64,000 nucleotides of DNA from Candidatus Delongbacteria bacterium (GTDB lineage: Bacteria > CAIWAD01), in contig JBAYTZ010000014.1 of NCBI GenBank assembly GCA_041675285.1, forward strand, positions 22,891-86,890, written 5' to 3'. The notes beneath the pieces are model-generated. The model worked only from the letters and a program-made list of their open reading frames with translations, had not been told where the DNA came from and did not search any database. Both the position numbers and the translations under genes were made by a program. Shown here in pieces: positions 1 through 58,545 of this stretch (within the stretch, counting starts at the first letter, position 1; the number at the start of each line of letters is the position of its first letter).

Positions 1-4
1 GTCC

Positions 5-3778: not shown

Positions 3779-3819
3779 GCGGGCGGACCGCCGCTGACAG
3801 CCCGCCCGCTGGAGACCCG

Positions 3820-5033: not shown

Positions 5034-5189
5034 CACTGGAACAATTGGCTTTCATCCCTTCGTTGCAGCTAAATGCTTGATAGTCAAAAGGTTGAGTGTT
5101 TCATTCTTGTGACAATTTTGACCCGTCAAACGCCGGTCAAATGGGTCCTATCCCGGTCTGATATTTGAAGGGTAACGAGCGAGGTGAGG

Positions 5190-6353: not shown

Positions 6354-6376
6354 GGCCACCGCACAACTGGCGGTGC

Positions 6377-6502
6377 AGCCTGGCTCACTTCCAGATTGAC
6401 GCCAGAACGCCGCTTGAGGCGGTTTAGAAGGAGCTGGGGCACGAGTCCAAGACGACCACTGAGATCTATGCCAGGATGGCACCGGAACCCCGTTCGGGCT
6501 AA
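6377..6502 (+). pseudogene. degenerate duplicate of the integrase 3' end (integrase C-terminal fragment with an in-frame stop)
   Basis: Translation SLAHFQIDARTPLEAV*KELGHESKTTTEIYARMAPEP parallels the intact Int C-terminus SLASFQIDTGTPLEVIQKTLGHESKVTTEIYARLALDP. Roughly 75-80% nucleotide identity by eye. Confidence 0.6.
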
Positions 6503-6877
6503 TCATGAGCAAACGATAGAGCATGTTCGAATTCCAAAGGAGTAGTAGCTTCCTTGGTCTGATGCATCATCCGAATTGCCGGACTGCAATCGGGGCAAGA
6601 ATTCCGTTGCGTCCAATGTGTCTCTAATCTGATGCCCCGGTCCGTGCTCGGTTCGTACTTACATCCGAGGCAATGGCGGAATATGACAGAGCAAGTCTTG
6701 ACAAGTCCCCCCTCTCAATCCGTCTCGATAGCGAACCCGCGTAGGTCGCATAAAGCCTATCTCGTTATACTGCGCGCAGCGTGCTTTTTCTCTGACGGGT
6801 CAAGGGGATGCGCCAGTCACATAAGATCCTGCGGGGTTTTATCTAGACTGTCTAATTCTTAGTTATGCCGAAGCAAA

Positions 6878-7822
6878 TTGAAATGTGAGAACTGGAACAT
6901 GTCTGATACGAAGTTTAGGGAACTTAAATTCAGATTACGGCTTTGGACGAACCGAATGCGATTTCAGATTTTGCGTAGTAAGAGAGGAATGCCGCTGAGA
7001 CTATACCTTGATCTTAGGTATAGGAGATTTGTACGGTGGACTATTTGGATGTTGGCAATGACAGGTCTATTGTCATCGTTCATTTCTTTTCAATCAGTAG
7101 TTGTGGCGTTTGTCTTTGGTTTGGTATTGTTTATCCTTGGTAAGGTTTTTGAGTTTTTCGCCTTTGCGCATCCTGCCGCATTTCTCCACGCACTTCCTAC
7201 ATTTGATATTGATCCAGCAAAGTGGACGGGCATGGTGTTTGGATATGCTTGTCCACCTGACAAATCGATTCCTGATGTTCCACTTGTGGGAATGGCTATC
7301 TCCGATCATAGTTATGCGAGGCAGCTGTCAGAACTCTTATTAGTTTGGTCGGACCAAGAAAAAGACGACAAGGATGGTTGCATTGTGGTAAGAGTAATTA
7401 TTCTCAATGAATCTGAGTATATGATCATCTGCAGACCTGGGATAAATAGAAAGAGAGCGAAAGATTTTTTTGACTTGCAGCGCCAGAATCTCAGCAAAGT
7501 GTCATTGATGGATATCGTTGTCGAACACCATGGAATGATTGTGTTTGGAAAGCGATGTGTGATCACAGCAAGCTCGTTCTTCCCCAAGTTTCGCGAAAAG
7601 TATAAAGATGGGACACCGGTTATATTTGGCTTCTTTGACGCGGACCGTCCAGAACTGGGCTTCATTGATGCTCTACCGCAGTTTAGGTTGTCTTCGTTTT
7701 CAATTGTCCGAAAAAATGAGCTGACAAGGCATGACCCGGAATATGATTTGCTGCCGCTTTGGGAAACTGGTGGAGTTTGGCAAGGCCCAGGTGAGCCGCC
7801 TACTCGGAAATCTTCGGCATAA
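6878..7822 (+). CDS. cassette 1: hypothetical membrane protein (2 N-terminal TM helices + cytosolic domain)
   Basis: 314 aa. Hydrophobic stretches LAMTGLLSSFISF and VVVAFVFGLVLFILG. No recognisable catalytic motif. Confidence 0.5.
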   Translation: MKCENWNMSDTKFRELKFRLRLWTNRMRFQILRSKRGMPLRLYLDLRYRRFVRWTIWMLAMTGLLSSFISFQSVVVAFVFGLVLFILGKVFEFFAFAHPAAFLHALPTFDIDPAKWTGMVFGYACPPDKSIPDVPLVGMAISDHSYARQLSELLLVWSDQEKDDKDGCIVVRVIILNESEYMIICRPGINRKRAKDFFDLQRQNLSKVSLMDIVVEHHGMIVFGKRCVITASSFFPKFREKYKDGTPVIFGFFDADRPELGFIDALPQFRLSSFSIVRKNELTRHDPEYDLLPLWETGGVWQGPGEPPTRKSSA

Positions 7823-7944
7823 CATGTGCTTGCAGCCGACTTTGCGCCTGTCACGGCGCTTGCGAGAAGTGAGCGAAGAGGAAGACAAAGAAAGCTAAGG
7901 CAAGCGCCGCGCCAGGCGCGCCGCGGCTGAAGCCAACGTTATGT
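7817..7944 (+). repeat. attC-like site 1 (GCATAAC ... GTTATGT)
   Basis: Inverse core overlaps the TAA stop. Internal inverted repeat GCGCCTGTCACGGCGCTTGC / GCAAGCGCCGCGCCAGGCGC. Shares a conserved family sequence with sites 3 and 5. Confidence 0.6.
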
Positions 7945-7976
7945 GCAGTTGAAGTTGTCATGCAAAGGAACATAAA

Positions 7977-9671
7977 ATGACACCCGCAGAATTTGAGCAA
8001 TCCGTTGATAAAGCTGTTGAGCGACTGCAGATATTCGGTCTTCCCTCAAAGTGCATATTCGGTGCTGTGTTCGGTGTGATTGATAATTTGTTTAACGGTA
8101 AGAGATTTAGTGAAAACATCGAGCCAAGAATCGATGCAGGCTGCGCACTGATTGGTCGACTCTCCTATATGGCACCACTGTTACTTACATGCGATAGTAC
8201 GCAGATAGGTAGTAGCGCACTTGACACACAACAGGCTTACTTCTCCGTCGATTCAGATGGAGAACAGTTAAAGCTATTGCAAGCATATGGCCATTTCTGT
8301 GAGATAATGCCTGAAGTACATCGTGGATACTACAAGGTCATAGAATGCACTACAAACCGGTTGCGACTCGAACATAGCAGCCCTGAATTCAGGCACTCTG
8401 AATCGCTAGATATCATACTATCAGATTTAGCGTTGCCCTACCTTGTTCGTGTTCCTACAAACTACATGAATATGTTTGATAGGCAGGCAGAGCAATTACC
8501 AAAAGGAGACAGTGAGTTTCTAAACAAGACACTGGAAATTCTGTTTAATCATCACGCTACTCACACATTTGAAGTGCCAATATTATCATCCACAGGCTTT
8601 CTTTCGGGAGTTGGTGTATCCTATGAGGAATTTAAGCGTTTCCGTGCTGCATGGTTTGCATTCGCAGACTATTGTTTAGGAATGGCAGCAGCGATATCTC
8701 GATTAGGTGTAAACGACCCTAGCAGACAAGAGCAGTTGTTGCCTGAGCTATTCGAATGGCAGACCATAAACTTTAAAGAATATTTCTGCAAAGATCTAAT
8801 TATAAAAATCTCCAATATCCATCCCGATTCATATGAGAAGATTCTCAGCTTGTACTCATTCTACACTAATAATGAGGAATCTGACATGCGGTTCGGAGAT
8901 GGTTTTTTTCCGCCATTTATTCGGTACAAAGAATCTATCTGCTTCAATCCAAATACTCTTCAAATCATGCTTTCAGAAAGAAACATTCCCTATGTATTGA
9001 ACAAAATTGATCGAAAAAGATTTGATGGTGAGATATCAGAATACATGGAACCCCAGTTGATAAGTATTGCTGTAAAGCTGTTGAAGGCAATTGGCAATTG
9101 GGTGATAGTTGAGAACAAAGCCTGGGCGGGGGGTGAATTCGATATTCTGGTATATGCCCAACATGAAAACGTTGTACTGCATATCCAAGCAAAATCGGCC
9201 ATACCAGCACAAGGCGCAAGAATGATCAAGGCAAATGAAAGCCGCATCAAAGAAGGATTAAGGCAACTAAGAGTTTTCAGAGAAAAGCCTCAATCTTTTC
9301 AGGACTCGATCCTATCTAAGGCATTGGGCTTGAAAGTCTGCAACGCTTTAGTTTTAGATTCAGTACTTAGTCGTTCCAGTTTTGGAACTCATAACCTATG
9401 GTCAGAACTTGATAACACAATTCCATTGTCACCGACAATACTGTTGCACCTAGTGAGGAAGTACAAAGACTCAACACAACAAATTTTATTAACGGATATT
9501 AAGAATGAGATTGAGAGTTTCTTCGAGTTTATTTTGGATGATATGTGTCCGATATGGTCGGAAGCAATACTTGAAATTTCCGATAAGCAAGTTCTCTTTC
9601 CGCTGCTTGAGTTTGATGCAAACAATCTATCAAAACTGCGCGAAAGACTATGGAACTACTACGCAGTTTAA
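7977..9671 (+). CDS. cassette 2: hypothetical protein with a possible C-terminal PD-(D/E)xK nuclease-like motif
   Basis: 564 aa. Segment WAGGEFDILVYAQHENVVLHIQAKS fits D ... (E/Q)xK. Otherwise no similarity I can assign. Confidence 0.5.
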   Translation: MTPAEFEQSVDKAVERLQIFGLPSKCIFGAVFGVIDNLFNGKRFSENIEPRIDAGCALIGRLSYMAPLLLTCDSTQIGSSALDTQQAYFSVDSDGEQLKLLQAYGHFCEIMPEVHRGYYKVIECTTNRLRLEHSSPEFRHSESLDIILSDLALPYLVRVPTNYMNMFDRQAEQLPKGDSEFLNKTLEILFNHHATHTFEVPILSSTGFLSGVGVSYEEFKRFRAAWFAFADYCLGMAAAISRLGVNDPSRQEQLLPELFEWQTINFKEYFCKDLIIKISNIHPDSYEKILSLYSFYTNNEESDMRFGDGFFPPFIRYKESICFNPNTLQIMLSERNIPYVLNKIDRKRFDGEISEYMEPQLISIAVKLLKAIGNWVIVENKAWAGGEFDILVYAQHENVVLHIQAKSAIPAQGARMIKANESRIKEGLRQLRVFREKPQSFQDSILSKALGLKVCNALVLDSVLSRSSFGTHNLWSELDNTIPLSPTILLHLVRKYKDSTQQILLTDIKNEIESFFEFILDDMCPIWSEAILEISDKQVLFPLLEFDANNLSKLRERLWNYYAV

Positions 9672-9691
9672 TGGGAATCTAAATTGTAATA

Positions 9692-9822
9692 GCACATAAC
9701 AACTGCATGAAGCTGATGCCTCGCCTTGTCGCGGCCTTTGCCCTGGCAGATGACGCCTGCGCGTCAGGCTTGACGAGCAAAGCCCGCGCCAAGCCGGTCA
9801 CAGCTTATGCAGAACGTTATGC
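9692..9822 (+). repeat. attC-like site 2 (GCACATAAC ... GTTATGC)
   Basis: Inverted repeats GGCCTTTGC/GCAAAGCCC and CTGCATGAAGCTGATGCC/GGTCACAGCTTATGCAG. Ends 15 bp before the cassette 3 start (RBS AAGGAG + TTG). Confidence 0.55.
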
Positions 9823-9836
9823 ACAAGGAGCAGTAG

Positions 9837-10517
9837 TTGTCTAATCAAGAGATTGAAGAAACGACAGGCGATAGGCTGTCTCAGGCTAAGATCTACTTCG
9901 CATTTGTCAACGATCATGCCTCTTCACTTGATGACAAGGCGCGTACTCTTTTAACGATCGTATCATTACTAATCGGAACAGGGGTTCTGACTTTTTTCAA
10001 AGCGACTTTTGACAGTCAAGCAACCCTTAGCATTCGTCTAGCTTTTGTGGTGCTTGAATTGTCTCTATTGGCAACCTCAGCTGTTGCATTCTTCAAAATT
10101 CTGAACGTTTTGCGACTTCACGGATATAAGGGACCGCCTGATGCAAAAGGATTCCTGGAAAAGTTCAGAACAGAAGATGCCAAGACGACGAGGGAATCAC
10201 TGGCGCATTATTATGCTGCTGCGGCGGCAGAAAATTCAGAGCAAGTAAACACGATGGCCTCATGTTTGAAGGAGGCTTTCATTTGGACAAAAGTCGCATT
10301 CGGGGTGTTTCTGTTGTCAATCGTTACGTTAACACTCGCAATGTCATTTGGTGGAGAGCCAAAAATGTCAAACCAGAATGAAGCTCCAAAAAATCCCGCA
10401 AGCGGGACAACATCAGGTCAAGGATCGCAACCAACTCAACCGGCATCATCAGCACCGCCTGAACCTAAGCCAGTTCCGGGAACTCGAATTGAAAAGAGCG
10501 ATACACCTGGCAAGTAG
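9837..10517 (+). CDS. cassette 3: small 3-TM membrane protein with a low-complexity S/P/T-rich C-terminal tail
   Basis: 226 aa. TM segments LLTIVSLLIGTGVLTFF, LAFVVLELSLLATSAVAFF and VAFGVFLLSIVTLTLAMSF. Resembles small membrane effector/sensor proteins of defence systems (SLATT-like topology), but this is only topology-level similarity. Confidence 0.5.
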   Translation: MSNQEIEETTGDRLSQAKIYFAFVNDHASSLDDKARTLLTIVSLLIGTGVLTFFKATFDSQATLSIRLAFVVLELSLLATSAVAFFKILNVLRLHGYKGPPDAKGFLEKFRTEDAKTTRESLAHYYAAAAAENSEQVNTMASCLKEAFIWTKVAFGVFLLSIVTLTLAMSFGGEPKMSNQNEAPKNPASGTTSGQGSQPTQPASSAPPEPKPVPGTRIEKSDTPGK

Positions 10518-10527
10518 AAGTACGTAT

Positions 10528-10653
10528 GCATAACATGCCGTGCAGCCGACTATGCGCTTGTCACAGTGCTTACAGAACTTGACACAAAGAAACGTCGGTA
10601 AGACGAGGCAAGCGCCGCGCCAAGCGCGACGCGGCTGACGCCAGCCGTTAGGC
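10528..10653 (+). repeat. attC-like site 3 (GCATAAC ... GTTAGGC)
   Basis: Same sequence family as site 1 (TGCAGCCGACT.TGCGC.TGTCAC ... GCAAGCGCCGCGCCA.GCGCG.CGCGGCTGA.GCC). Confidence 0.6.
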
Positions 10654-10666
10654 ATTTGGGGGAAAG

Positions 10667-11674
10667 ATGATCAGAACAGCAGCGCAAGAAATCGAAAAAG
10701 TGGAAATGGGTAGACCGCACTTAGTCATTCTTGGCGCAGGGGCAAGTTACGCATCTACACCAACTGGCGATCGATTCGGAAAGCATCTCCCGCTGATGTC
10801 GAATTTGATTGAAATCCTTGAACTTGATGACATCGTTTCGAAATCTGGAATTGACTGTAGCAAGGGCAATTTTGAAACATTCTATTCGGAGCTTTACTTG
10901 CGAAAGGATATGGAATCGCAACGGAGAGAGCTCGAAGAGCGCATTCATCGCTACTTTAGCAGTTTGGAGTTACCGGAAGAACCCACTATCTACGACCATC
11001 TTGTTCTCAGTCTGCGCGAGAAAGACTATGTAGCGACATTCAATTGGGATCCTTTCCTGGTTCAGGCAATAAAGCGAAATGGCCGACGCTTCCCAATGCC
11101 CCGTCCACTTTTTCTCCATGGAAATGTAGCTGTCGGCTATTGTCGTCATGGGCATTCAATGGGTGACATTGGAAGTTGTTGCTCTAAATGTGGCGAGAGC
11201 TTTGTTCCGACAAGGATTCTGTACCCTGTTGCAGAGAAGAACTATCAAAACACTGAATTCATAGATCGGCAGTGGAGGGCAATCCAGGCAATTCTAAATG
11301 ATACATTTATGGTCACAGTTTTTGGCTATGGTGCCCCAGCCACAGATGCGAGTGCGGTTGAATTGCTGAAAACTGCCTGGGGTGGCGGCGACACTCGGGT
11401 TATGGAAGAGATTGAGATCATCGATATTCGCGATGATAATGAGTTAGAAGATCTTTGGTCACCGTTCATACATTCACATCATTACCGAGTGCACAGCTCC
11501 TTCTACGATTCGTGGATCTCAAAACATCCCCGCAGAACGGGCGAGGCCTATATCGATCAGTTCATCGATGCGATGTTCATCGAAGACAATCCTATTCCAC
11601 GTGGTTTGAGTTTTACCGGACTCTGGGATTGGTTTCAACCTTTGTCAGATGTAGAATTTGAGGCAAATGTCTGA
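10667..11674 (+). CDS. cassette 4: SIR2-like (SIR2_2 family) NAD-binding/NADase-type protein with an internal Cys/His Zn-ribbon-like insert
   Basis: Four SIR2_2 motifs in the same order as in ThsA-type SIR2 domains: LVILGAGAS (GAGxS), ATFNWDPF (TTNYD-like), LFLHGNV (catalytic HG), VFGYGAPATD (FVGFSFxD-like). Insert CRHGHSMGDIGSCCSKCGE resembles the sirtuin Zn module. Confidence 0.7.
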   Translation: MIRTAAQEIEKVEMGRPHLVILGAGASYASTPTGDRFGKHLPLMSNLIEILELDDIVSKSGIDCSKGNFETFYSELYLRKDMESQRRELEERIHRYFSSLELPEEPTIYDHLVLSLREKDYVATFNWDPFLVQAIKRNGRRFPMPRPLFLHGNVAVGYCRHGHSMGDIGSCCSKCGESFVPTRILYPVAEKNYQNTEFIDRQWRAIQAILNDTFMVTVFGYGAPATDASAVELLKTAWGGGDTRVMEEIEIIDIRDDNELEDLWSPFIHSHHYRVHSSFYDSWISKHPRRTGEAYIDQFIDAMFIEDNPIPRGLSFTGLWDWFQPLSDVEFEANV

Positions 11675-11795
11675 CAAGAACTTGCAATTGCCCCGCCCAG
11701 CGTCACGCCGCTTGCGTTGGACGCGACGCTAATCTTGGACGGAAATGTTCGCAAGCGGCGCGCCTCTGGGTGGGCAATTGAAGTCAACGTTAGGT
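11674..11795 (+). repeat. attC-like site 4 (... GTTAGGT)
   Basis: Inverted repeats GCAATTGCCCCGCCCAGCGTCACGCCGCTTGCG / CGCAAGCGGCGCGCCTCTGGGTGGGCAATTG. 3' core GTTAGGT lies 25 bp before the cassette 5 ATG. The 5' inverse core is poorly matched (CAAGAAC). Confidence 0.5.
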
Positions 11796-11819
11796 TCACA
11801 AGGAACTGAAGTGACGTAA

Positions 11820-12704
11820 ATGAAGATATTCCCTGATCCACCGCGCTTTGCTGATGAAGTCATCAGGTCATGTAAGCGAACGAATGATTATAGACCTATA
11901 ATATTCGAGTGGTATCAACACGTAATGATGCTTGCTAATGAGGTTTCCCTAATAAGCTTTGAATCACCTTCGGTTAGACAATTGAATAGATTGCAACATA
12001 TTGTTCTAGCTGGACTTCTATTTAGATGCAGTAGACTCATGAACTCGGTAGCATTAATTTCACGGAATGGCGAGTTTGGTGAAACTACAGCTATTCTGGA
12101 TCGATGTATATTTGAATCTTCAATAAAAGTTGTTTGGTTATGTCGAAGCGGGACTTATGACAAGTTTGTGCGATTCATGGCCAATGGTCTGAAAGCCGAT
12201 GTTTGTTTGAAGAATGAAATCGAAAAGGAGATCAAATCGCGAGGAGGAGCAGTACTGGAGATCGAAAATCGAATGCTGAAGTCAATTGAGAATTTCTTAG
12301 AGATTTCAAATCTTAGTGAAGAGGATGTAAGAGATTGTAAATGTCTTCCTCGTTTTGATATCATGATGCGTGAAATTGGGGAAAGTGATCTTGGTTATAT
12401 AGTAGGACAGAAGATTAACTCACACTTTGTTCACGGAACATGGTCTGGAATGCTACATCATTGTCTGAAGGTTGGTGATGATGGACTGTTGCATGTGGGA
12501 AGAAGTAGATGTCAAACGCACTTCAGTCAGTATTTAGGTACGGCGCTACAGGTTGTCGTTGCGGTATATGCTTATTGTGAATGGATGTTTGATCAGTCAA
12601 CTGCAAAAGTTTTCAAGGATGCTCTTCAGTTTGTTTATGATGAAGTGCTCAAGGTGGAACAGTCTGCAATGGGACGAGATTTTGACGAGGTGAATGGAAC
12701 CTAA
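11820..12704 (+). CDS. cassette 5: hypothetical protein
   Basis: 294 aa, low-GC ORF with plausible protein composition. No assignable motif. Confidence 0.5.
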   Translation: MKIFPDPPRFADEVIRSCKRTNDYRPIIFEWYQHVMMLANEVSLISFESPSVRQLNRLQHIVLAGLLFRCSRLMNSVALISRNGEFGETTAILDRCIFESSIKVVWLCRSGTYDKFVRFMANGLKADVCLKNEIEKEIKSRGGAVLEIENRMLKSIENFLEISNLSEEDVRDCKCLPRFDIMMREIGESDLGYIVGQKINSHFVHGTWSGMLHHCLKVGDDGLLHVGRSRCQTHFSQYLGTALQVVVAVYAYCEWMFDQSTAKVFKDALQFVYDEVLKVEQSAMGRDFDEVNGT

Positions 12705-12830
12705 CAACAGCTTGCAGCCGACTTTGCGCCTGTCACGGCGCTTGCAGGCTGGATTTGAAGAAACGTCGGTAGGAAAAAGCAAGCGACGCGCCAGACGCGT
12801 CGCGGCTGAAGCCGCGGAGCCAAAGTCCTC
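12700..12830 (+). repeat. attC-like site 5 (ACCTAAC ...; conserved family body but no canonical GTTRRRY 3' core)
   Basis: Same family body as sites 1 and 3 up to GCGGCTGAAGCC, then diverges (GCGGAGCCAAAG). A lone GCCTAAC occurs about 60 bp downstream (12888-12894). Confidence 0.45.
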
Positions 12831-13425
12831 GCCAAATTCTTCTTCAGTGCTGACGAATGGAATCGCGGCGTTCGACTCAGCACGGTCGCCTAACCACTTG
12901 ATCCCATTGAAAATTGACGTCGCTAAGGCGGCAAACCCACTGCTGGAGCGGGCTGAAGGCCAAACAGAGAACAGTTTGCCGAAGACTTGCCTCGGATCCC
13001 CAAGCCCCGCAATGGGGCACTCAACCCATGTACCAGACCCGCTTATCTTGGCTCCCGTGTCTCACGTTGCACGGTTACCTCGGAGTGGATCATGTCCCGG
13101 CTTACATACATCGCGGCCCTCACCATCGCCCGTCCCATTCACCACTGCGCCCTCTCCCGTTCCATTCTGCTGACCCTCAAGTAGCCCGGAGCGACAGTCC
13201 AGGCCTGGTTGATCACCAGGTCTAACGCGGACCGTTCGGCCCGGGCATTCCTGTGCTCATCCCATTTCCGTGTGACACACGGATCGGGTGATCTCTGCCT
13301 ACAGGTCGCCAGGGCGAACTCTGCCCAGTTCATCACCTGTCGGCTCCGGCGCGCACCCAGCGCCCGGGCCTTGATCCCGCTCTCCGGCGAAGCCGCGCCG
13401 GCGCTGACGCAGCGCTGGAGCGGCC

Positions 13426-14498: not shown

Positions 14499-15269
14499 AT
14501 GGGCCGATTCGACGACATGAACAAGCGCCACGAGCAGCACACCCTGGAGAGTGGCCGCTTCCTCAAATTCGACGACGGAGACAAGCACCTGCTGGTCTTC
14601 CTGGGCTTCCCCCACATCCGCGAGGTGTACTGGGACGGCACCAACTACCACGACTGGAAAGACGGCTGCGGCAAGGAGAAAAGCCTGAAGACCTCGATGA
14701 ACGTGGCCATCATCGAGCTGGTTGGCGGCAGATACATCTTCAAGGCCCTCAAGGTCCTGGAGAACTCCAAGACGTTCTTCAAGCAGGTCAACAAGATGGA
14801 TGTCAAGTACGGCGTCGACAACGAGATCTTCGAAGTTGAGCGCACGGGCCAGAAGGCCAAGGACACCACCTACACGATCCTTCCTGAGGCCCCCATCAGT
14901 CCCGAGCTGCGCGCCCAGCTGGACGCTCTGGAACTCAACGACCTCACCAAGGATCGCGACGACGACGACCAGAAGGGCGGCAGTGGCGGCAGCACCACCA
15001 AGCAGCCCGATCCCCCGGCCATCATCACCCAGGACGAGGGAAACGCCATCATCGAGCGGCTCAAGGCCCTCAAGGCCGCGCTGGGCGACGCCCAGGGCGC
15101 GCAGATGATGGCCGATTTCCTGGCCAAGTTCGGCATCAAGCAGATCCGCCAGCTCCCAGCGGCCAGGCTCAAGGAAGCCCAGCAGTGGATCGCGGGAGAG
15201 GAGGAGAACCTGCGTCACGCCAAGAATGATGGCGGCGTGGGTGCGGCCGAGGCCGACCCCTTCTCCTGA
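14499..15269 (+). CDS. hypothetical protein, possibly an SSB-like ssDNA-binding protein (Gly-rich linker + acidic C-terminal tip ...EADPFS)
   Basis: Start MGRFDD with GGAGG RBS. GGSGGSTT linker. Terminal DPFS resembles SSB C-terminal tips (DIPF). Weak. Confidence 0.4.
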   Translation: MGRFDDMNKRHEQHTLESGRFLKFDDGDKHLLVFLGFPHIREVYWDGTNYHDWKDGCGKEKSLKTSMNVAIIELVGGRYIFKALKVLENSKTFFKQVNKMDVKYGVDNEIFEVERTGQKAKDTTYTILPEAPISPELRAQLDALELNDLTKDRDDDDQKGGSGGSTTKQPDPPAIITQDEGNAIIERLKALKAALGDAQGAQMMADFLAKFGIKQIRQLPAARLKEAQQWIAGEEENLRHAKNDGGVGAAEADPFS

Positions 15270-15348: not shown

Positions 15349-17367
15349 ATGCACCTTTCGGATTCCACTCCCTGGCCGGTGCTGCCAGAGGACCTGCTCA
15401 CCCTGCCCGGCGACCCGGAGATGCAGGAGCCCATTGTCACGGCTGAAGAGGTCTTCGGCCCTGGTGGCCTTCTGTCTCAGCGGCTGCCCGACTACCAACC
15501 CAGGGCCAGTCAACTCATCATGGCCCAGGAAGTGGAGCAGGCCCTAACGGATGGCCGGAGTCTGATGGTTGAAGCGCCGACAGGCACGGGAAAGAGCCTC
15601 GCCTATTCCGTGCCGGCCATCCAGCACGCCCTAATCACTGGGCAGCGGGTGCTCATCGCTACGGCCAACATCGCCCTGCAGGAGCAGCTCACCCAGAAAG
15701 ACCTGCCCTTCCTGCAGCGAGTGCTGCCCGGCCCCTTTCGATTCGCGCTCCTCAAGGGCCGAGGGAACTTTTTATGCAGCAGCCTCCTCCTGGAACAGCG
15801 GAGCATGCTCTTCGCTGGAGTCTCCGGCGAAGACCAGGACGAGTTCGACCGCGTTCTCGACTGGACGAATCGGACCAGCACGGGCGATGCAGGCGAGCTT
15901 CCCTTCAGAGTTAAGCCCCGGGTATGGCGCCACTTCGCCGTCGGTGATACAAGCGAGTGTGCCGGCTGCACGCTGAAGTGCTACCACAAGGCCGCCATGG
16001 TCGAGGCCGAGGATGCCCAGGTGGTGGTCTGCAACTACCACCTGCTCTTTGCCCACCTGAAGGTCCAGGCGGCCACGTGCGGCATGGCCGGCGTGCTGCC
16101 GACCTTTGACGCCCTCATCTGCGACGAGGCCCACGAGGTCCCGGACATCGGCAGCGACTTTGCCGGTGAAGAGATCGGCCGCTGGAGCTTCCGTGGTTTC
16201 AAACGCCACCTCTCACGCGGTGGGTTCGAGGCACTAGACCGCGCCGCCGATGGCCTGTCCAAGGCCATCAAACTGATGGCGTTCCGGCACGCTGCGGCTG
16301 GATCGAACCGCATCAAGCTCCCCGGTCTCATCGACGAGGAACCCATTCTGGAGGCCCTACGCCACGCCTGGCTGGAGCTGCGCGCCCTGCAGGCCCAGTA
16401 CGAGGCGGAAACCAAAGAGCACGCCCAACTGGAACGCCAGAAGGAGCAGTGTCGCCAGCTGGCCCAGCTGGTCCATCGCCTGATCTGGCAGGAGTTCTCG
16501 GATTGGGTCTACTGGGTGGAGCGCCAGGAATCTCACATTGGCGAGAGCTGGAAGCTCAAGGGCAAGCCGGTTTCCATCGCACCCTTCCTGCAACAGGCTC
16601 TCTTGCCCTGGGTTCCGTTGATCGCCACCAGCGCGACGCTGACCACCACCCATGAGGACTTCACCTTCATCCGCGAGCGCATCGGCCTGGACGCTGCAAC
16701 GCGTCAGGTCGTCTTGCCCAGCCCCTTTGACTTCAGCAGCGCGGCCCTCCTGGTGGTGCCTGAAGGGCTTCCTGAGCCCAACGATCCTGCCCACCGCGAC
16801 CGCGTGCAGGGTGAGCTCCACGAAGCCGTGCAGCAGAGCGGTGGCCGGGCCCTCCTGCTCTTCACGTCCAGCCAAGCGCTGAAGGCTGCTCACAGCCTGC
16901 TGGCCCCGGAGTTCGAACGCATGAACTACGCCTGCCACTGCCAAGGCGATGCCCCCTCCACTAAGCTCATCACCCGCTTCAAGGAGGACGTGTCCAGTGT
17001 CCTCTTTGCCACGCGGACTTTCTTCCAGGGCGTGGACGTACCCGGGGAGAGCCTGTCCCTCGTGGCCCTGGACCGCTTGCCCTTCCCCTCGCCAGCGGAC
17101 CCGGTGATGGACTACATCGCCGAGCACGACCCCAAGGGCTGGTTCTTCAAGCACAGCCTGCCCATCGCCCTGATCACCTGGAAGCAAATCTTCGGTCGCC
17201 TGATCCGCCGGCACGACGACCGCGGCGTGGTGCTGCTGCTGGATGGCCGGGTGGGCACGAAGAAGTACGGCAAACAGTTCTTGAAAGCCATCCCGGGCGG
17301 CATGTTGAGCCGCGAGGTGGCGGCCATTGGGTCCTTCCTGGCCGACCCGGAGGACCCTTTCGCATGA
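15349..17367 (+). CDS. DinG/XPD-family (Rad3-like) ATP-dependent DNA helicase with an Fe-S cysteine cluster
   Basis: Walker A MVEAPTGTGKSLAY, DEAH box LICDEAHE, Cys cluster SECAGCTLKCY between the motifs. Ends ...PEDPFA. Confidence 0.8.
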   Translation: MHLSDSTPWPVLPEDLLTLPGDPEMQEPIVTAEEVFGPGGLLSQRLPDYQPRASQLIMAQEVEQALTDGRSLMVEAPTGTGKSLAYSVPAIQHALITGQRVLIATANIALQEQLTQKDLPFLQRVLPGPFRFALLKGRGNFLCSSLLLEQRSMLFAGVSGEDQDEFDRVLDWTNRTSTGDAGELPFRVKPRVWRHFAVGDTSECAGCTLKCYHKAAMVEAEDAQVVVCNYHLLFAHLKVQAATCGMAGVLPTFDALICDEAHEVPDIGSDFAGEEIGRWSFRGFKRHLSRGGFEALDRAADGLSKAIKLMAFRHAAAGSNRIKLPGLIDEEPILEALRHAWLELRALQAQYEAETKEHAQLERQKEQCRQLAQLVHRLIWQEFSDWVYWVERQESHIGESWKLKGKPVSIAPFLQQALLPWVPLIATSATLTTTHEDFTFIRERIGLDAATRQVVLPSPFDFSSAALLVVPEGLPEPNDPAHRDRVQGELHEAVQQSGGRALLLFTSSQALKAAHSLLAPEFERMNYACHCQGDAPSTKLITRFKEDVSSVLFATRTFFQGVDVPGESLSLVALDRLPFPSPADPVMDYIAEHDPKGWFFKHSLPIALITWKQIFGRLIRRHDDRGVVLLLDGRVGTKKYGKQFLKAIPGGMLSREVAAIGSFLADPEDPFA

Positions 17368-19418
17368 GCGCGCCCATCCTGGTGGACAGCCTGATTCGGA
17401 TCCCACTGCGAGACCTTTCCCCACGCGAGCGGGAGATCCTGGAGAGGGCCCTGTCCTACCCCAACCCCGCCTACCAACAGGCCAAGGCCCGGGGAGTGCA
17501 AACCCCGCGCGAGAAGGTGGACGGCGTCTGGCGCGAGATCCCCAAGCGCCTGGACGGCTTCCTGCTGGACGGGCAGGGCCGCTGGTGCATGCCCCGTGGT
17601 GCAGTAGCACTCCTGCGCAAGCACCTTCCAGCCTGGCCGGGCACAGAGGATCGGCGCAGCCGAGCACCCTTGGCGCCCAGCACACTGCCCGCCATGCGTA
17701 TCGAACTACGCCCCTACCAGCTGGCCGCCAAGGAAGCCATGGTCACCCGAACCCAGGGCGTGGTGGTGATCCCCGCCGGCGGCGGAAAGACCGTCACGGC
17801 CCTGGCCGCCTTGGTGGAGATCGGGCAGCGCACGCTGGTTCTGGTCCACACACTAGACCTGAAGGAGCAGTGGGAAGAGGAGCTGGAGGAGCACCTGGGC
17901 GTGGCGCCCGGGAAGATCGCGCCGGTGCAAGTGGCCACGGTGCAGACCCTGGCCAAGATGCATGCGGACGCTCTGACCCGGTACCTGACCGGTTTCGGCT
18001 GCCTGATTCTTGACGAAGGCCACCACGCCCCGGCCAGCACATTCGACCGCGTGGTGGCGTCCTGCCCGGCTACCTGGCGCCTGGCACTGACGGCCACTCC
18101 CGACCGGGAAGACGGCCTGACACCCAAGCTCCTGCACACCTTCGGCCCCATCCTGCACGAGACCCGCCAAGAGGACCTGCTGGCCGCCGGCTACCTGGTG
18201 CCAGCCGTCATCCACGAGGTCCACACGAGCTTCACCTTCCCCTACCAGGGCGCCGAGGACTACCAGGCCTTGGCCGAAGCATTGGCCCGGGACGAGGAGC
18301 GCAGGCGGCTGGTGCTGGACACGCTGGAGGCCCTCTACCAGGACGAGGAGCGCGTGATTCTGGTGCTATCCACCCGCGTGGAGGACCACCTGGTCCCGCT
18401 CTTCGAAGCGGCCAAGGCCCGAGGCATCCAGGGCGAGCTCCTGGCCGGGAAGGTGAAGAAGGACGCCCGGCGGCTCATCCGGCGTGCTGTGCGTGAAGGC
18501 CATGTGCGCGTGCTCTTCGCCTCGACTGTCGCAGACGAGGGCCTCAACATTCCCGAGCTGAACACCCTGCTCCTGACCTTCCCCGCCAAGGCCGAAGGCC
18601 GAGTTGAGCAGCGCGTGGGCCGGGTGATGCGCGCGTCGCCAGGCAAGACCAAGGGCGATGTCTACGACTTCATCGACAGCGCCGTGACCCATGTGGCCAC
18701 GGACGCCAAGCCCTTCCTGCGCCAGTATGCCAAGCGTCGGGCCGCCTACAAGAAGCTCCGGGCCAGCATCGTGAGGGCCGCTCCTGCGGCCCAGGCCGCC
18801 AACAGCGCCCTTGATGCCGGGCTGCTGCATCCCGTGCTCGCCCCGGCGATCCTGAAGCCCCACGCGGGCCGACGGCTGGTGGTGGGCATGGATCCTTCCT
18901 TCACCCACTTCGCTCTGGTAGCCGTGGACGTCGACCTCTGGTGGCCCGTGGCCATGACCACGCTCACCACCGCGCCCAGCGACAAGAAGCTGGGCATCCG
19001 CAAGGCCGACGATGACGGGCGTCGGTTGGAGATCCTGGCACTGGGCATCCGCGACTTCCTGGCCCGATTCCGCCCGGACCTACTCTGCTGCGAAACCCCG
19101 TCCTCCGGCGCCCAAAGCGCCGCGGCCTTGAAGGGCCTGGCCTATGCCAAGGCCCTCCTGGTGACGGCCAAGGTCTACCACGAAACGCCCACCATCTGGC
19201 TCCTGCCCGGGGACATCAAAGAGCGGGTGGGCGGCGGCCTCATTGCCACCAAGCAGCGAGTGGCCCAGTCCGCCCAGGCCTGCCGCGCCAGGGACGGCAG
19301 GCCGTGGTCGGAGGCCGGCTGGGACGCCACCAAGGACAAGAGCGAGCACCAGTTCGACGCCGCGGCGGCCATCCTGGCCAGCGTGAACGAGGACCTGTTC
19401 CAGGCCGTGATTCGATAG
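17364..19418 (+). CDS. SF2 helicase (DEAD/DEAH, type III res-subunit-like) fused to a C-terminal RuvC-like Holliday-junction resolvase domain
   Basis: VVVIPAGGGKTVTALAA (motif I), LILDEGHHAP (motif II), VLFASTVADEGLNIPELN and RVGRVMR (motifs V/VI). C-terminal 170 aa align to RuvC: VVGMDPSF (D), LLCCETPSS (E), DAAAAILAS (DAxDA). Confidence 0.7.
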   Translation: MSAPILVDSLIRIPLRDLSPREREILERALSYPNPAYQQAKARGVQTPREKVDGVWREIPKRLDGFLLDGQGRWCMPRGAVALLRKHLPAWPGTEDRRSRAPLAPSTLPAMRIELRPYQLAAKEAMVTRTQGVVVIPAGGGKTVTALAALVEIGQRTLVLVHTLDLKEQWEEELEEHLGVAPGKIAPVQVATVQTLAKMHADALTRYLTGFGCLILDEGHHAPASTFDRVVASCPATWRLALTATPDREDGLTPKLLHTFGPILHETRQEDLLAAGYLVPAVIHEVHTSFTFPYQGAEDYQALAEALARDEERRRLVLDTLEALYQDEERVILVLSTRVEDHLVPLFEAAKARGIQGELLAGKVKKDARRLIRRAVREGHVRVLFASTVADEGLNIPELNTLLLTFPAKAEGRVEQRVGRVMRASPGKTKGDVYDFIDSAVTHVATDAKPFLRQYAKRRAAYKKLRASIVRAAPAAQAANSALDAGLLHPVLAPAILKPHAGRRLVVGMDPSFTHFALVAVDVDLWWPVAMTTLTTAPSDKKLGIRKADDDGRRLEILALGIRDFLARFRPDLLCCETPSSGAQSAAALKGLAYAKALLVTAKVYHETPTIWLLPGDIKERVGGGLIATKQRVAQSAQACRARDGRPWSEAGWDATKDKSEHQFDAAAAILASVNEDLFQAVIR

Positions 19419-19429
19419 GGAGACTGTCC

Positions 19430-22312
19430 GTGGGGTATCTGGATCTGGTGGAGCGCATCAAGCGCGAGTTGACGATGGACGAGCTGGTCCCGCACCACAC
19501 GGGACGGAAGCCCATCCGCTGCCCGCTCCCCGGCCACGAGGACAAGGACGGGTCCTTCCTGGTCTACCAGGAGACCAACTCCTGGTGGTGTCCCAGCCAT
19601 CCCCACACACGCTGCGGTGGCAGCCCCATCGACTACATCATGCTGGAGCAGCACCTCGACTTCAAGGGTGCCGTTAGGCATGCCGCCGCCCTCAAAGGCT
19701 GGGACCTTGCGCCGCCGTCCGAAGAGGATCGCATCGCAGAAGAGGCCCGCCACAAGCGTGAGGAGACACTCAGCGCCCTGGTGCGCTATGCCCATGGACA
19801 GCTCCTCGCCGACACGGATGTGGCCAAGGAGGCGCGCGAGTATCTGGCAGCCCGAGGCTTCCACGAGAAGCTGCTGGAATACCACCAGGTGGGTCTGCTG
19901 AGCTTGGAGAAGCTCTACCAGGTGCGTGGCACCCACCCCCTCCTGGCGGACTTCAACCAGGCGGATTTCGAAGAGGCCGGTTTGCGAGGGGCGACGGGCA
20001 GCCTCCTCTTCCGGGACACGCGCATCGCCTTCCCCTTGCTGATCCGCCAGCGCGCTGTGGGCATGACCTTTCGCGCCATTCCGGGCTCCAGCGACAAGCG
20101 GAAGTTCGTCCACCTGGCCGGCCAGCCGGCCGGCTTGTGGAACCAGGACGCGCTGTTCAACAAGGACCGAGAGGTGACCGTCGGCGAGGGCGTCCCGGAT
20201 GCCGCCACGCTGGCCGGGTGGGAGATCCCAGCGGTGGGCAACCTGGGCCTGGAGGTGGCCAAGAACGCCCACCTCTTTGCCCACCTACGCGTGGTCACTC
20301 TCGTCTGGGACAACGACAAGGCCGGGCGCAGCCGGGTGGTGAACGCGGGCCGGGCCATCCAGGCCGCCCTGCGCGACGGGGAGGTGCGGATCCTCCACAT
20401 GCCTGGCGAGAAGGACATCAACGACTGGGCGCGAGCCGGGGGAACCAAGGAGGAGTTCCTGACCCTTCTGTGTGGGGCCCCGGATCTCTTGACCTACCAG
20501 GTGCAGCTGCTGCCAGACGTGAAGGCCGGCGAGCGCATGACGCGCGATGCACAGGCCGCGCTGCATGAGCTCCTGGCCGACGTCAAGGGGCTAGACGAGA
20601 ACTTACAGGACGTCTACCTGAAGAGGATTGCAGCCCGGGTCGATTCCAAGCCGCTGACCCTGAAAGGCATGATCCGGGCACAGGGAAAGAAGACAGCCGG
20701 GTCTGGAGCCGACGTGGGTGACTCGACAACACCCACGCTGGTGGCCTCTCAGGCCCCTGCCCTGGGGGCCGTATTCAAGGACGAAATCCCCTACCGGGCA
20801 GCCCTTGGGTTCCAGTTCAACGAGGCCCCCACCGCCAACATCGGCGTCTGGCTCAGGCCGAAGGATGACGAGCCTCTCGCCCCTTTCCTCATCGAGTCAG
20901 TGATCCAGGACGGGAAACCGTCCATCTCCTTGGTCCCCTATGCGGCACGCAGCAGGAAGGCCAAGGGCAAGATCAGCTTCCCCAATGAAGACCTACCCCG
21001 CTGGACAAAGGGCGATGCGCCCTACAGCATGGAGAGCTTGCTGACCGCCCCCGAGGCCAACACGCCGAATGCCGCCCACGTCTTCACGAGGATGCGTAGC
21101 CTGATCAAGCGATTCATCTGGTACCCCGCCGACCACGAATACGACGTCGTGACCATCTGGATCATGATGACCTACTTCTTCCCCGTCTTTGGTCGCGTGG
21201 GCTATCTGCACTTCAACGGCGGGTCGGGATCAGGCAAGAGCCTCAGCCTTCGCTTCATCGAGGCCCTGGCCTTCAACGCACTCAAGACCGCCAACATCAG
21301 CGACGCAGCCCTCTACCGCATTGTCGACGGATCCCGCTCCACCCTCCTGATGGACGAGGCCGAGCGTCTGAGCTTTCCCAAGGCCGGCACGCTGGAGGCC
21401 ATCATCCGCTCCCTCTTTCTGGACTCCTATGCCGAGGGGGCGGTGGTCTATCGGATGAACATGGAGACCGAGCGCCCCGAGCCTTTTGATGCTTTCGGCC
21501 CCAAATGCATGGGCAGCATCAACAAGATCGACCCTGTGTTGAACAACCGTTGCATCACCATCCACTGCCTGCGAAAGGAAAAGGGCGTCCACCTCGCCCA
21601 CCATGCCCAGATGGCTGAGGAGTTTTCACGTCTAGCTTCGCAGCTCCGGGACATGATGCACTGCATGGTGCTGACCCGGTTCCACGATGTCAGGCGAATC
21701 TTCACGGTTGACTTGATGGGGGCCTACACCGAGATCGAGAACCGCGAGTACGAGATCTGGATTTCCCTGATCGCCATGGCCCGCCTGGTGGACCAGGACG
21801 CGGAGTGGGATGAGACGCAGTCCCTGACGGACATCATCCTGAAAGCCCAGCACAGCAAAGAAGTCGAGCGGGAGGAGGAGGCCCGCAGAGAAAGCGTCGA
21901 CATCCTCATCCTGCAGACGCTGCTGAACATCATCACCGGCGATGACCAGGACACGTACGAGGTGCGCGGCGACGCCTGGAAGTACGTAAGCCACAAGCTC
22001 GCCGAGGGCATTCATTCCGAGCTCAACCAGGATGGCACGTGGCCCTTTGAGAAGCCGCTCACAAGCAACCGCCTGACCAACCTGCTGAAAACCCAGCACG
22101 TCATCGAGGAGGCCGATGTCAGCCGGCCCTTCATAGGCGGCAAGCGCGTGCGAGCCCTCAAGATCCGCCACGATAACCTTCGCAAGGCGCTGCAGCGCAT
22201 GCACGGCCTGAGCGCTGAAGACGAGGCTGCGCTTCCTACCGCCACCGAAGACCAAGCAACCCCGCCCCACCCCATGCCAACCCAAACCAAGCAGGACGAC
22301 CTGCCCTTTTGA
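19430..22312 (+). CDS. DNA primase (CHC2 zinc finger + TOPRIM) with a C-terminal P-loop (primase-helicase/D5-like) domain
   Basis: CPLPGHEDKDGSFLVY...WWCPSH zinc finger. TOPRIM EVTVGEGVPDA ... VWDNDKAGRS. Walker A HFNGGSGSGKS. Start GTG 19430 with GGGAGA RBS directly after the upstream stop. Confidence 0.8.
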   Translation: MGYLDLVERIKRELTMDELVPHHTGRKPIRCPLPGHEDKDGSFLVYQETNSWWCPSHPHTRCGGSPIDYIMLEQHLDFKGAVRHAAALKGWDLAPPSEEDRIAEEARHKREETLSALVRYAHGQLLADTDVAKEAREYLAARGFHEKLLEYHQVGLLSLEKLYQVRGTHPLLADFNQADFEEAGLRGATGSLLFRDTRIAFPLLIRQRAVGMTFRAIPGSSDKRKFVHLAGQPAGLWNQDALFNKDREVTVGEGVPDAATLAGWEIPAVGNLGLEVAKNAHLFAHLRVVTLVWDNDKAGRSRVVNAGRAIQAALRDGEVRILHMPGEKDINDWARAGGTKEEFLTLLCGAPDLLTYQVQLLPDVKAGERMTRDAQAALHELLADVKGLDENLQDVYLKRIAARVDSKPLTLKGMIRAQGKKTAGSGADVGDSTTPTLVASQAPALGAVFKDEIPYRAALGFQFNEAPTANIGVWLRPKDDEPLAPFLIESVIQDGKPSISLVPYAARSRKAKGKISFPNEDLPRWTKGDAPYSMESLLTAPEANTPNAAHVFTRMRSLIKRFIWYPADHEYDVVTIWIMMTYFFPVFGRVGYLHFNGGSGSGKSLSLRFIEALAFNALKTANISDAALYRIVDGSRSTLLMDEAERLSFPKAGTLEAIIRSLFLDSYAEGAVVYRMNMETERPEPFDAFGPKCMGSINKIDPVLNNRCITIHCLRKEKGVHLAHHAQMAEEFSRLASQLRDMMHCMVLTRFHDVRRIFTVDLMGAYTEIENREYEIWISLIAMARLVDQDAEWDETQSLTDIILKAQHSKEVEREEEARRESVDILILQTLLNIITGDDQDTYEVRGDAWKYVSHKLAEGIHSELNQDGTWPFEKPLTSNRLTNLLKTQHVIEEADVSRPFIGGKRVRALKIRHDNLRKALQRMHGLSAEDEAALPTATEDQATPPHPMPTQTKQDDLPF

Positions 22313-26677: not shown

Positions 26678-27108
26678 GCATGCACCGGCACCCAGCGCCC
26701 CTCAGCCCCACCGCCGCCGAGCACCTGGCCCTGATCGCCGACGCCCTGCACGTCCCACGCGACACGCCTGGGCATGAATTGGTCCAGCTGGTTTCCGTGC
26801 GCTGCAGGCCCATGGACAGGCAGCACCTGGACCGGCTGGTCACGGGAAGCCTCAAGAGCGCCATTCACGCCCATGGCCCAATCACCCACGAAGGCATCTG
26901 CAGCACGGCCAGACGCATGTCCGGCCAGATCCACGCAGTCCTTTGCGCCCAACACATGGGCCTGGACGACCCCGGGCAGGAGCTGCCAAGCGGGCCCGCA
27001 GCCATGCCGAACCCCCCAGAGGATGCGCCGCCCTACAGCCCGACTTGGTTGTCGGCAACGGCCAGCTCCATCAACACGCCACCCCACAACGAGAGGACCA
27101 CACCATGA
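26674..27108 (+). CDS. hypothetical protein
   Basis: ATGA-coupled to neighbours. Confidence 0.3.
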   Translation: MSMHRHPAPLSPTAAEHLALIADALHVPRDTPGHELVQLVSVRCRPMDRQHLDRLVTGSLKSAIHAHGPITHEGICSTARRMSGQIHAVLCAQHMGLDDPGQELPSGPAAMPNPPEDAPPYSPTWLSATASSINTPPHNERTTP

Positions 27109-33562: not shown

Positions 33563-33883
33563 AAACCGCGAAAAAACGTCCAGGATCATGCCGCCCCGCC
33601 TTGGGGCGGCATTTGTGTGTCAAAGGGATCGCCCACCAGGTGCGTGCGAAAATGTCCGAGAATGGCTGTTCCCGGACGTTGGCGCGGGCATAGAGTGCGT
33701 ACATCACCTGCCGGCAGCCTGGCAAACGGGTGGGCCGGGGGGTGGTCTGGCGCAAAGCGGCAGGCCCCGCCGGGGCATCTTGGCTGTAAGGGGTGCTTTT
33801 GCGCACGCGTAGCTGGCCTATATGCAGAAGCTCCAGTGCTATACTCTTCCACCAATCTTGTTGCCTATTCAAGCAGGAAAGCT

Positions 33884-42715: not shown

Positions 42716-42750
42716 TCGCAGCTAGGTGGGCGCCAGGCCGAGAGGTGAAC

Positions 42751-43455: not shown

Positions 43456-43456
43456 G

Positions 43457-58204: not shown

Positions 58205-58406
58205 CCGACCTGCCTTGTTTGCCTCCGCATCCACGAGCCCGTCGTCCTCAAGGTTACCCTCTTTAGGGACATACTGGAAGATCACCATGCACGCCAGGCA
58301 TTGGAGAACTTGGAGATCCAGAAAGCGCTAGAGCATCGATGACGAGTTGCAGATTCTTCTTCAGTGTAAAGAGTATTAAGTCAGAGTCTGCGCTAAATGG
58401 GTTAAA

Positions 58407-58437: not shown

Positions 58438-58545
58438 CTAATTTAGTATCGGAGTTTAGTTGTCTGATATTATCACGCTTATATTTCAAGAATACACAAA
58501 TCTAGATGACTGTATGTGCAAATACGGCTGAACTTAATATTATGC

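Follow-up and report, generated by a model that had tools for sequence, protein, structure and literature searches.

The multi-subunit RuvABC system is still the main subject of studies on how junction movement and junction cleavage are coordinated. In archaea, Hef joins a superfamily 2 (SF2) helicase to a structure-specific endonuclease acting on branched DNA in one polypeptide. RuvC enzymes form dimers via helix alpha-B and introduce paired nicks, with published catalytic tetrads of D7/E66/D138/D141 in Escherichia coli RuvC and D7/E70/H143/D146 in Thermus thermophilus RuvC (PMC3864405). The helicases T5 D10 and T4 UvsW have been shown experimentally to be branch-migration enzymes for three- and four-way junctions, and XPB is their closest characterised relative (PMC5180179). 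Here, a gene is described that encodes an XPB/D10-like helicase and a RuvC-family nuclease in a single chain of 684 amino acids (aa). It lies within an integrated phage in a stretch of 64,000 nucleotides from a Candidatus Delongbacteria bacterium (contig JBAYTZ010000014.1), which was analysed as a whole and is referred to as the window. Comparisons of sequence and structure models make it fairly probable that the product is a bifunctional enzyme of a temperate phage, which would couple branch migration to the cleavage of recombination or replication intermediates. To our knowledge, it would be the first natural fusion of an SF2 helicase with RuvC to be described.

Architecture and conservation of the fused protein

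The open reading frame at 17364-19418 was also called as a single 684-aa gene by an independent gene caller in a metagenome source record (ENA ERZ27247358). Four regions could be distinguished in its product, i.e. an N-terminal domain, an SF2 helicase core, a linker and a C-terminal RuvC domain. The gene, its regions and its motifs are located as follows.

17364..19418, forward strand: whole gene, fusion of an XPB/D10-like helicase and a RuvC nuclease, 684 aa, stop codon TAG at 19416-19418
17364..17678, forward strand: N-terminal domain, residues 1-105, mixed beta/alpha
17679..18728, forward strand: SF2 helicase core, residues 106-455, two RecA-like domains of the XPB/UvsW/T5-D10 type
17778..17792, forward strand: motif I (Walker A) GGGKT, residues 139-143, invariant in all 16 fusions
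18012..18023, forward strand: motif II DEGH, residues 217-220, invariant in all 16 fusions
18105..18113, forward strand: RED motif, residues 248-250, just after motif III, a hallmark of XPB
18609..18623, forward strand: motif VI QRVGR, residues 416-420, with the arginine finger, invariant in the 16 fusions
18729..18875, forward strand: linker, residues 456-504, a helix and then a weakly conserved tether rich in Ala and Pro
18876..19415, forward strand: RuvC-family nuclease domain, residues 505-684
18891..18893, forward strand: codon of D510 in GMDPS (residues 508-512), equivalent to RuvC D7
19092..19094, forward strand: codon of E577 in CCETP (residues 575-579), equivalent to E. coli RuvC E66
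19251..19253, forward strand: codon of K630 in ATK, corresponding to the lysine of SAEK in E. coli RuvC
19347..19358, forward strand: H662-Q-F-D665 in EHQFDAAAA (residues 661-669), equivalent to H143/D146 of T. thermophilus RuvC and D138/D141 of E. coli RuvC

The helicase half matched Pfam ResIII at residues 113-248 (E = 9e-20) and Helicase_C at residues 321-424 (E = 3e-12), as well as the PHROGs family phrog_16 'DNA helicase' (E = 2.7e-69). Motifs I, II, III (TAT, residues 243-245, invariant in the 16 fusions) and VI are intact, which bears out the original prediction, made from the sequence alone, of a complete SF2 helicase of the 'res subunit' type. The RED motif of the query aligned with the 'ferEDg' stretch of Archaeoglobus fulgidus XPB; R248 and D250 are invariant among the fusions and E249 is replaced by Ala in three of the 16. 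The best solved sequence relatives were archaeal XPB/Rad25 proteins (E = 4.6e-31), followed by the XPB of TFIIH, T4 UvsW (E = 1.4e-7) and RadD, and a Foldseek search with a full-length AlphaFold2 (AF2) model gave the same ranking (archaeal XPB, E = 7e-18; UvsW, E = 5e-11). The full-length model is mediocre, with a predicted local distance difference test (pLDDT) of 65 and a predicted template modelling score (pTM) of 0.35, and is too weak for the arrangement of domains; its global template modelling (TM) scores to XPB are low, at 0.2-0.4. In the comparison with the thumb (ThM) insertion and the N-terminal damage-recognition domain of XPB, residues 276-310 and much of 389-487, including part of the linker, were modelled at a pLDDT below 50, while the N-terminal domain is confidently folded (about 82-85 over residues 10-90). 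Among the NCBIfam models, repair_heli_XPB was the best match (E = 4e-33), yet its score of 114.7 bits is far below the equivalog cut-off of 610, and the motor is therefore regarded, from its sequence, as XPB-like and not as an XPB orthologue. The match to Pfam ERCC3_RAD25_C was just below threshold (26.2 bits against a cut-off of 27). Essentially the whole of T5 D10 aligned with the helicase part (28% identity over 403 aa, E = 2e-32), and from the homology to D10 and UvsW the motor is predicted to be a translocase on double-stranded DNA that carries out branch migration. Both D10 and the helicase-only relatives stop where the linker of the query starts. The helicase-only relatives span about 66-68% of the query, consistent with an N-terminal domain in common, and the alignment of phage helicases to the query begins at residue 23. 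The N-terminal domain possibly recognises DNA or the branch.

Direct assignment of the C-terminal domain through Pfam or NCBIfam failed, and its family was reached via PHROGs, a family profile and a structure model. The PHROGs family phrog_159 'RuvC-like Holliday junction resolvase' matched the last 180 residues (E = 3e-20). In single-sequence searches, E. coli RuvC (1hjr) was found at E = 1.7e-4 with E577 placed on E66, and T. thermophilus RuvC was matched weakly with D510 placed on D7. An exhaustive HMMER scan of 1.84 billion representatives with query residues 455-684, at a cut-off of E <= 1e-3, yielded 601 representatives as relatives of the nuclease domain. The query domain and 50 stand-alone relatives were combined in a family alignment (n = 51), in which D510, E577, K630 and D665 are invariant and H662 is conserved in at least 90%. 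All 51 members matched phrog_159, and 49 of the 51 also matched Pfam RuvC, the query being one of the two that did not. The profile of this alignment matched the solved RuvC structures of Deinococcus radiodurans, E. coli, Pseudomonas aeruginosa and T. thermophilus with E-values from 3.9e-18 to 6.5e-14. It placed D510 on the GIDPG stretch of the E. coli and D. radiodurans enzymes, E577 on 'AIEQV' of 1hjr, K630 on 'GSAEK' and 'GRADK' in RuvC structures, and 'EHxxDA' on 'NHAADA' ('NHAADALA') of D. radiodurans RuvC. Among the 16 fusions, D510, E577, H662 and D665 are likewise invariant. The identity to cellular RuvC is only about 17-21%. The profile and the model thus identify the C-terminal domain, by a transitive route, as a diverged member of the RuvC family.

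An AF2 model of this domain, built with the family alignment, reached a pLDDT of 95.5 and a pTM of 0.90. Its elements (E11-16, E21-28, E33-41, H53-75, E79-83, H92-112, E116-119, H121-129, H136-145 and H163-179) follow the order of RuvC, b1-b2-b3-aA-b4-aB-b5-aC...aE, in an RNase H-like fold, and the helix at residues 586-606 of the protein corresponds to alpha-B of RuvC. The top 12 Foldseek matches in the PDB were all bacterial RuvC proteins (E = 2e-10 to 7e-8, target-normalised TM 0.75-0.83). Kae1, RuvX and MOC1 came only next, at about 1e-4, i.e. about four orders of magnitude behind RuvC in E-value. The original prediction of a C-terminal RuvC-like domain with preserved catalytic positions was confirmed by phrog_159, the family profile, the RuvC fold of the model and the presence of GMDPS, CCETP and EHQFDAAAA; its extent was corrected to residues 505-684 (about 180 aa), with some 50 aa of linker in front. 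The ranking of folds, in which RuvC stands first and transposases are missing from the top matches, rules out both a transposase remnant and a different RNase H-like family, and the confident fold likewise speaks against an unstructured segment. A large-terminase nuclease was also rejected, as the element has a terminase of its own and terminases are missing from the top fold matches. Separate expression of the RuvC domain from an internal start was considered, but a conserved start codon with a convincing Shine-Dalgarno site could not be found upstream of residue 505.

The uninterrupted architecture was found in 15 database clusters from NCBI, JGI, ENA and Logan assemblies, with 56-92% identity and lengths of 680-695 aa. 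In pairwise comparisons of the fusions, the identity averages 0.75 in the helicase core and likewise 0.75 in the RuvC domain, as against 0.60 in the N-terminal domain and only 0.49 in the linker; both enzymatic halves are thus under equal purifying constraint, with a variable tether between them. The next-closest helicases (at most 44% identity, about 455-500 aa) reach only the first two-thirds of the query, and the nearest relatives of the nuclease (up to 38% identity) are stand-alone proteins. Among the 150 of 601 nuclease-domain matches listed, the fusion was found only in the cluster represented by P0001. Two short matches (P0085, P0234) are 5'-truncated pieces of fusion genes, and the other 148 matches listed are stand-alone proteins of 125-265 aa (median 186). 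The check on orthologues that had been suggested with the original prediction thus gave a clear result, in that the nearest helicase relatives, of about 460 aa, share the synteny and lack the domain. A scan of 185,579 species-representative genomes (GTDB) found close relatives in one metagenome-assembled genome (MAG), which holds three copies. Single-protein scans of IMG/VR returned zero relatives, and none of 50,697 cultured-phage records had a single match over at least 80% of the fused protein; these records contained only helicase-only matches and stand-alone RuvC genes, e.g. in SSU5-like phages and Klebsiella phage P184. The top 50 matches in BFVD were viral helicases without an evident helicase-RuvC match, the longer weak matches A0A6J5R402 and A0A8S5QRJ9 being left out. 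No model of the fused architecture exists in Pfam, NCBIfam, PHROGs or PADLOC, and the original prediction that it is not a standard annotated family thus largely holds. However, both components are named in the automatic annotation of JGI/IMG ('superfamily II DNA or RNA helicase/Holliday junction resolvasome RuvABC endonuclease subunit'). A description of a helicase-RuvC fusion was not found in the literature searched, the coverage of which was incomplete, so that this absence is no proof. The components are known, while the domain architecture is new, rare and apparently undescribed.

A further match of the nuclease domain, P0087, is a 262-aa protein with a DUF2201/VWA-like annotation, in which a stretch of 60 residues shares 77% identity with the RuvC domain (residues 581-641). 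This protein may be a chimera or a recombination remnant. Genes for DUF2201 proteins could also be observed near stand-alone RuvC genes at two loci (L014, L016).

The replication module of the prophage

The integrated phage is represented in the window by genes for an integrase (5184-6353), a terminase large subunit, a portal protein and a MuF-like head protein. Its replication module consists, in this order, of a sigma-like gene, a gene for a protein of about 256 aa, a DinG/YoaA-like helicase gene, the fusion, a gene for a 960-aa primase and an SbcC-like ATPase gene, with genes for a DEDD-type exonuclease and a PD-(D/E)XK exonuclease farther downstream. The location in a replication module, which had been part of the original prediction, was upheld by the DinG/YoaA-like helicase upstream and the primase-helicase downstream. 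The neighbouring genes are the following.

15349..17367, forward strand: DinG/YoaA-like helicase, directly upstream, its stop overlapping the start of the fusion (Pfam Helicase_C_2, E = 8.5e-33)
19430..22312, forward strand: primase (zinc ribbon and Toprim) with a C-terminal P-loop NTPase, 960 aa
22324..23688, forward strand: SbcC/Rad50-like AAA_23 ATPase, in a position conserved in the loci of the fused homologues

The upstream helicase matched NCBIfam YoaA at E = 3e-151, a score under the cut-off of that model. The primase gene starts with GTG 12 nt past the stop codon of the fusion, preceded by GGGAG. Its P-loop domain shows a Walker A motif GGSGSGKS at residue 597 and LLMDE at residue 639, and the C-terminal domain matched no library family save phrog_21086 (unknown function). 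This domain is probably the replicative helicase of the element, which leaves the fusion protein with an accessory role. Among the genes of the module, none for a DNA polymerase was observed.

The gene order is kept around the divergent fused homologues P0015, P0012 and P0007, and also around the helicase-only relatives P0017 and P0019, whose helicase has no extra domain. Around a further helicase-only relative, P0023, the order of helicase and then primase is retained and the upstream DinG-like gene is missing. A second RuvC was not detected in the window with narrow and broad hidden Markov models (HMMs) in six frames. At five loci, stand-alone RuvC relatives adjoin SbcCD-like, RecA, RecT, DnaB or primase genes. 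The slots beside the XPB-like helicase vary between elements, with an unknown gene for 248 aa at L004 (6468-7214), a sigma70_r4 gene at L001 (7377-7715) and an N6/N4 methyltransferase gene at L008 (8769-10004); such variation would fit a site prone to insertions, at which a RuvC gene could have been captured and fused.

Acidic tails resembling the C-terminus of SSB were observed on three proteins of the module, namely EADPFS on the protein of about 256 aa (14499-15269; tail at 15255-15269), PEDPFA on the DinG/YoaA-like helicase (17353-17367) and QDDLPF on the primase (22298-22312). All four elements with the fusion (that of the window, L006, L007 and L008) have them on the same three proteins; L001 and L002, which are helicase-only relatives, retain just the tail of the protein of about 250 aa. 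The fusion protein itself has no such tail. The tails suggest a common docking partner, comparable to the SSB C-terminus or to the tails of T7 gp2.5/gp4.

Proposed function and rival explanations

The properties of the two halves suggest that a single polypeptide probably moves and cuts branched phage DNA. In the proposed mechanism, the RuvC domains would dimerise via helix alpha-B and bind a Holliday junction or another branch point, the two tethered motors would engage the flanking duplex arms and shift the branch point at the expense of ATP, and the paired active sites (D510, E577, H662, D665) would nick two strands, by which the structure would be resolved. The linker of about 50 residues would act as a flexible tether between the motor and a Mg2+-dependent RuvC endonuclease. 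Such an enzyme would probably serve in recombination-dependent replication or fork repair, and in debranching of concatemers ahead of packaging by the terminase. Since RuvC enzymes are dimeric, two flexibly tethered motors would be present in each dimer of the fusion, which would formally resemble RuvC between two RuvB rings. An enzyme that binds, moves and cuts is the most economical reading because the role of replicative helicase is probably filled elsewhere in the module, the motor is a member of the branch-migration clade and the RuvC domain appears catalytically intact. We infer the dimerisation, the substrate and the coupling of the two activities, the last of which had already been proposed in the original prediction. 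A more specific version, which we put forward tentatively and with some doubt, is a self-contained 'mini-resolvasome', i.e. a homodimer held together by RuvC in which two tethered XPB-type motors would pump opposite arms and pass the DNA to the paired nuclease sites; neither RuvA nor RuvB would be needed for a mechanical coupling of branch migration, sequence scanning and resolution.

Several observations weigh against this reading. The query itself did not match PF02075 at E <= 1 or, in the test of the family alignment, at E <= 0.01, and NCBIfam RuvC gave it just E = 0.008 (16 bits against a cut-off of 163), so that its membership in RuvC is argued from profile, transitive and structural evidence. 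F69 of E. coli RuvC, which we take to be a functionally important aromatic wedge after the catalytic Glu, has no counterpart in the phage family, where the profile alignment shows Ser/Gly in this position ('ElpsGGaKS' as against 'EQV-FMAKN' of 1hjr; E577-T-P-S-S-G-A-Q-S in the query), and junction handling may therefore differ. No RuvC was detected within 6 kb of the helicase-only relatives (L001-L004; narrow and broad HMMs, six frames), and an XPB-like helicase was found beside stand-alone RuvC relatives at none of the five loci. The neighbourhoods thus give no independent support for a partnership of helicase and RuvC, and the fusion does not mirror a widespread gene pair. The full-length model (pLDDT 65, pTM 0.35) gives nothing on inter-domain geometry or dimerisation, and both activities are assigned by comparison of sequences and models. 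Phage RuvC enzymes are also promiscuous on forks and flaps (PMC3864405), and the true substrate may consequently not be the Holliday junction.

This last point leads to a rather unlikely but serious alternative, in which the protein is a fork- or bubble-processing helicase-nuclease comparable to Hef or XPB-Bax1. The motor would open or regress forks, D-loops or bubbles and RuvC would cut one arm, by which replication could be restarted or recombinogenic ends could be made. The closest solved helicases are indeed archaeal XPB proteins, XPB-Bax1 complexes among them, weak matches to the helicase domain of Hef were obtained, the neighbouring gene encodes a YoaA/DinG-like fork-repair helicase, and the cutting of forks and flaps by phage RuvC enzymes fits as well (PMC3864405). 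However, the full tetrad and helix alpha-B mark the nuclease as a true RuvC, its closest structures are junction-specific cellular RuvC enzymes, and D10 and UvsW, which among characterised phage proteins are the nearest homologues of the motor, act on four-way junctions too (PMC5180179). The alternative overlaps with coupled migration and cleavage, the chief difference being the preferred substrate. If, instead, the RuvC domain were catalytically silent and targeted the helicase as a module for dimerisation or junction recognition, in the manner of the inactive nuclease domain of FANCM, the loss of the aromatic wedge residue and a divergence great enough for Pfam RuvC to miss the query would be accounted for. 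Inactive nuclease domains, however, normally lose their catalytic residues; here these residues and the conserved lysine are invariant in 16 fusions with 56-92% identity, and the stand-alone relatives are alike (H662 in at least 90%), which makes a silent domain very improbable.

A role as an effector in defence or counter-defence, degrading host or foreign DNA like Cas3 or the restriction proteins of PbeA/Dnd systems, is also improbable, if somewhat less so. The helicase matched PADLOC PbeA (E = 1.7e-31) and type IV restriction helicases as well as NCBIfam dnd_restrict_1 (E = 2.4e-26), the upstream DinG-like gene matched the PADLOC model 'type IV DinG, associated' (E = 5e-111), and a defence island lies further downstream in the prophage. 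These matches are, however, limited to the generic helicase core, stand level with those to XPB and fall far under the curated cut-offs; that to PbeA is confined to profile positions 270-336 and 534-635. For the PADLOC systems PbeA, type IV REase, DrmD and Cas3, neither a match over residues 456-684 nor flanking partner genes were found, the partner genes of Pbe, Dnd and type IV CRISPR systems were not found flanking, and the RuvC domain occurs in no defence model of PADLOC or NCBIfam. In every element examined the gene sits between replication genes in conserved order, and the defence genes form a separate block. A known defence system was accordingly rejected, the similarity being to the helicase core only. 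That adjacent helicase and RuvC genes were merged by a sequencing or assembly error or by a lost stop codon might be suspected from the metagenomic origin of the sequence and from the existence of both helicase-only and RuvC-only relatives. This has next to no probability, as 16 distinct sequences from varied samples and assemblers share an unbroken frame of 680-695 aa with an alignable linker, three copies occur in one MAG, and the two short matches are 5'-truncated fragments of the same fusion; an artefact is effectively refuted by these 16 independent sequences.

Other prophage genes and comparison with known systems

The defence island occupies positions 33617-44620 inside the prophage, as a block of its own at 33.6-44.6 kb. 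It also holds genes for a RhuM-family protein and a Sel1-repeat protein, and its main components are as follows.

33617-37054: HKD(PLD)+SNF2 helicase (PADLOC C3a139, E = 2e-59)
39176-42715: Type IIG/ISP restriction-methyltransferase (E = 1e-181)
43385-44620: AAA_21 ATPase, match to the candidate system PDC-M56A (E = 4e-150)

Between the replication genes and those for the exonucleases lies a gene (26943-28526) for a streptopain-like cysteine protease, which matched Peptidase_C10 at E = 1.6e-46 and has an Inhibitor_I69 pro-domain. A homologue could be observed at the equivalent site in L008, and a protease is unusual cargo in a phage early region. The MuF-like minor head protein (52846-57285, 1479 aa) has a long C-terminal extension and a weak match to 'endonuclease VII' (phrog_3281, E = 2.6e-4) at residues 340-387, and may be a packaged effector or toxin fusion. 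The G+C content is 42-55% at 6000-13000 and 58000-62000, as compared with about 63-68% in the phage genes and 72% in the flanking chromosome (1-4000). The stretch at 6000-13000, between the integrase and the replication module, contains unannotated genes, a gene for a DUF5677 protein and one for a weakly matching PycTM-like protein (9837-10517), and looks like recently acquired cargo.

If the proposed function is correct, the fusion would provide independent evolutionary evidence that phage helicases of the XPB/D10/UvsW type work with junction resolvases, and a compact one-gene system for the biochemistry and structure of coupled migration and resolution. It could also serve as a tool enzyme for ATP-dependent debranching. 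Its importance is limited in that the parts are well known, the predicted role is conventional and the fusion is restricted to one narrow prophage clade of uncultured bacteria.

Compared with bacterial RuvC (PF02075) and RuvABC, the nuclease domain shows the same fold, order of elements, catalytic tetrad and conserved SxK lysine, and the proposed logic, in which a motor shifts the junction and RuvC cuts it, is alike. However, RuvC works non-covalently with the hexameric AAA+ protein RuvB and with RuvA, whereas here it is fused to a monomeric-type SF2 motor, and the domain differs from cellular RuvC by its identity of 17-21%, the missing Pfam match and Ser/Gly in place of the F69-type wedge. 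The nearest sequence relatives of the C-terminal domain are the stand-alone phage RuvC-like resolvases of phrog_159, such as the SSU5-like 'RuvC resolvase' of phage Cyrano and gp080 of Klebsiella phage P184, with the RuvC of lactococcal phage bIL67 as the characterised prototype. They share the invariant residues and similar neighbourhoods, but are proteins of about 170-220 aa without a helicase. The bIL67 enzyme was not among the top structural matches to the domain model.

T5 D10 and T4 UvsW are homologous to essentially the whole helicase part and are likewise encoded in phage replication/recombination clusters, but have no nuclease. Phage T5 offers an unfused analogue, in which D10, SSB, SbcD, SbcC, a RusA-like resolvase and FEN are encoded in one cluster; its resolvase D14, however, is encoded separately and is a member of the RusA family, which is unrelated. 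As for archaeal XPB-Bax1, XPB is the solved protein that best matched the helicase in sequence as well as in fold, and the helicase has the RED motif, whereas Bax1, from another nuclease family, forms a chain of its own and the pair acts in excision repair on bubble or fork DNA and not in a phage module. The helicase of Hef is weakly similar (1wp9, E = 6.5e-8; NCBIfam Hef, E = 1.7e-13), but its nuclease has the ERCC4/XPF fold and not the RNase H-like fold of RuvC, and Hef is a cellular archaeal protein and not one of a phage. None of these three systems, Hef, XPB-Bax1 and RuvABC, joins an SF2 motor and RuvC in one chain; they are functional analogues of the fusion.

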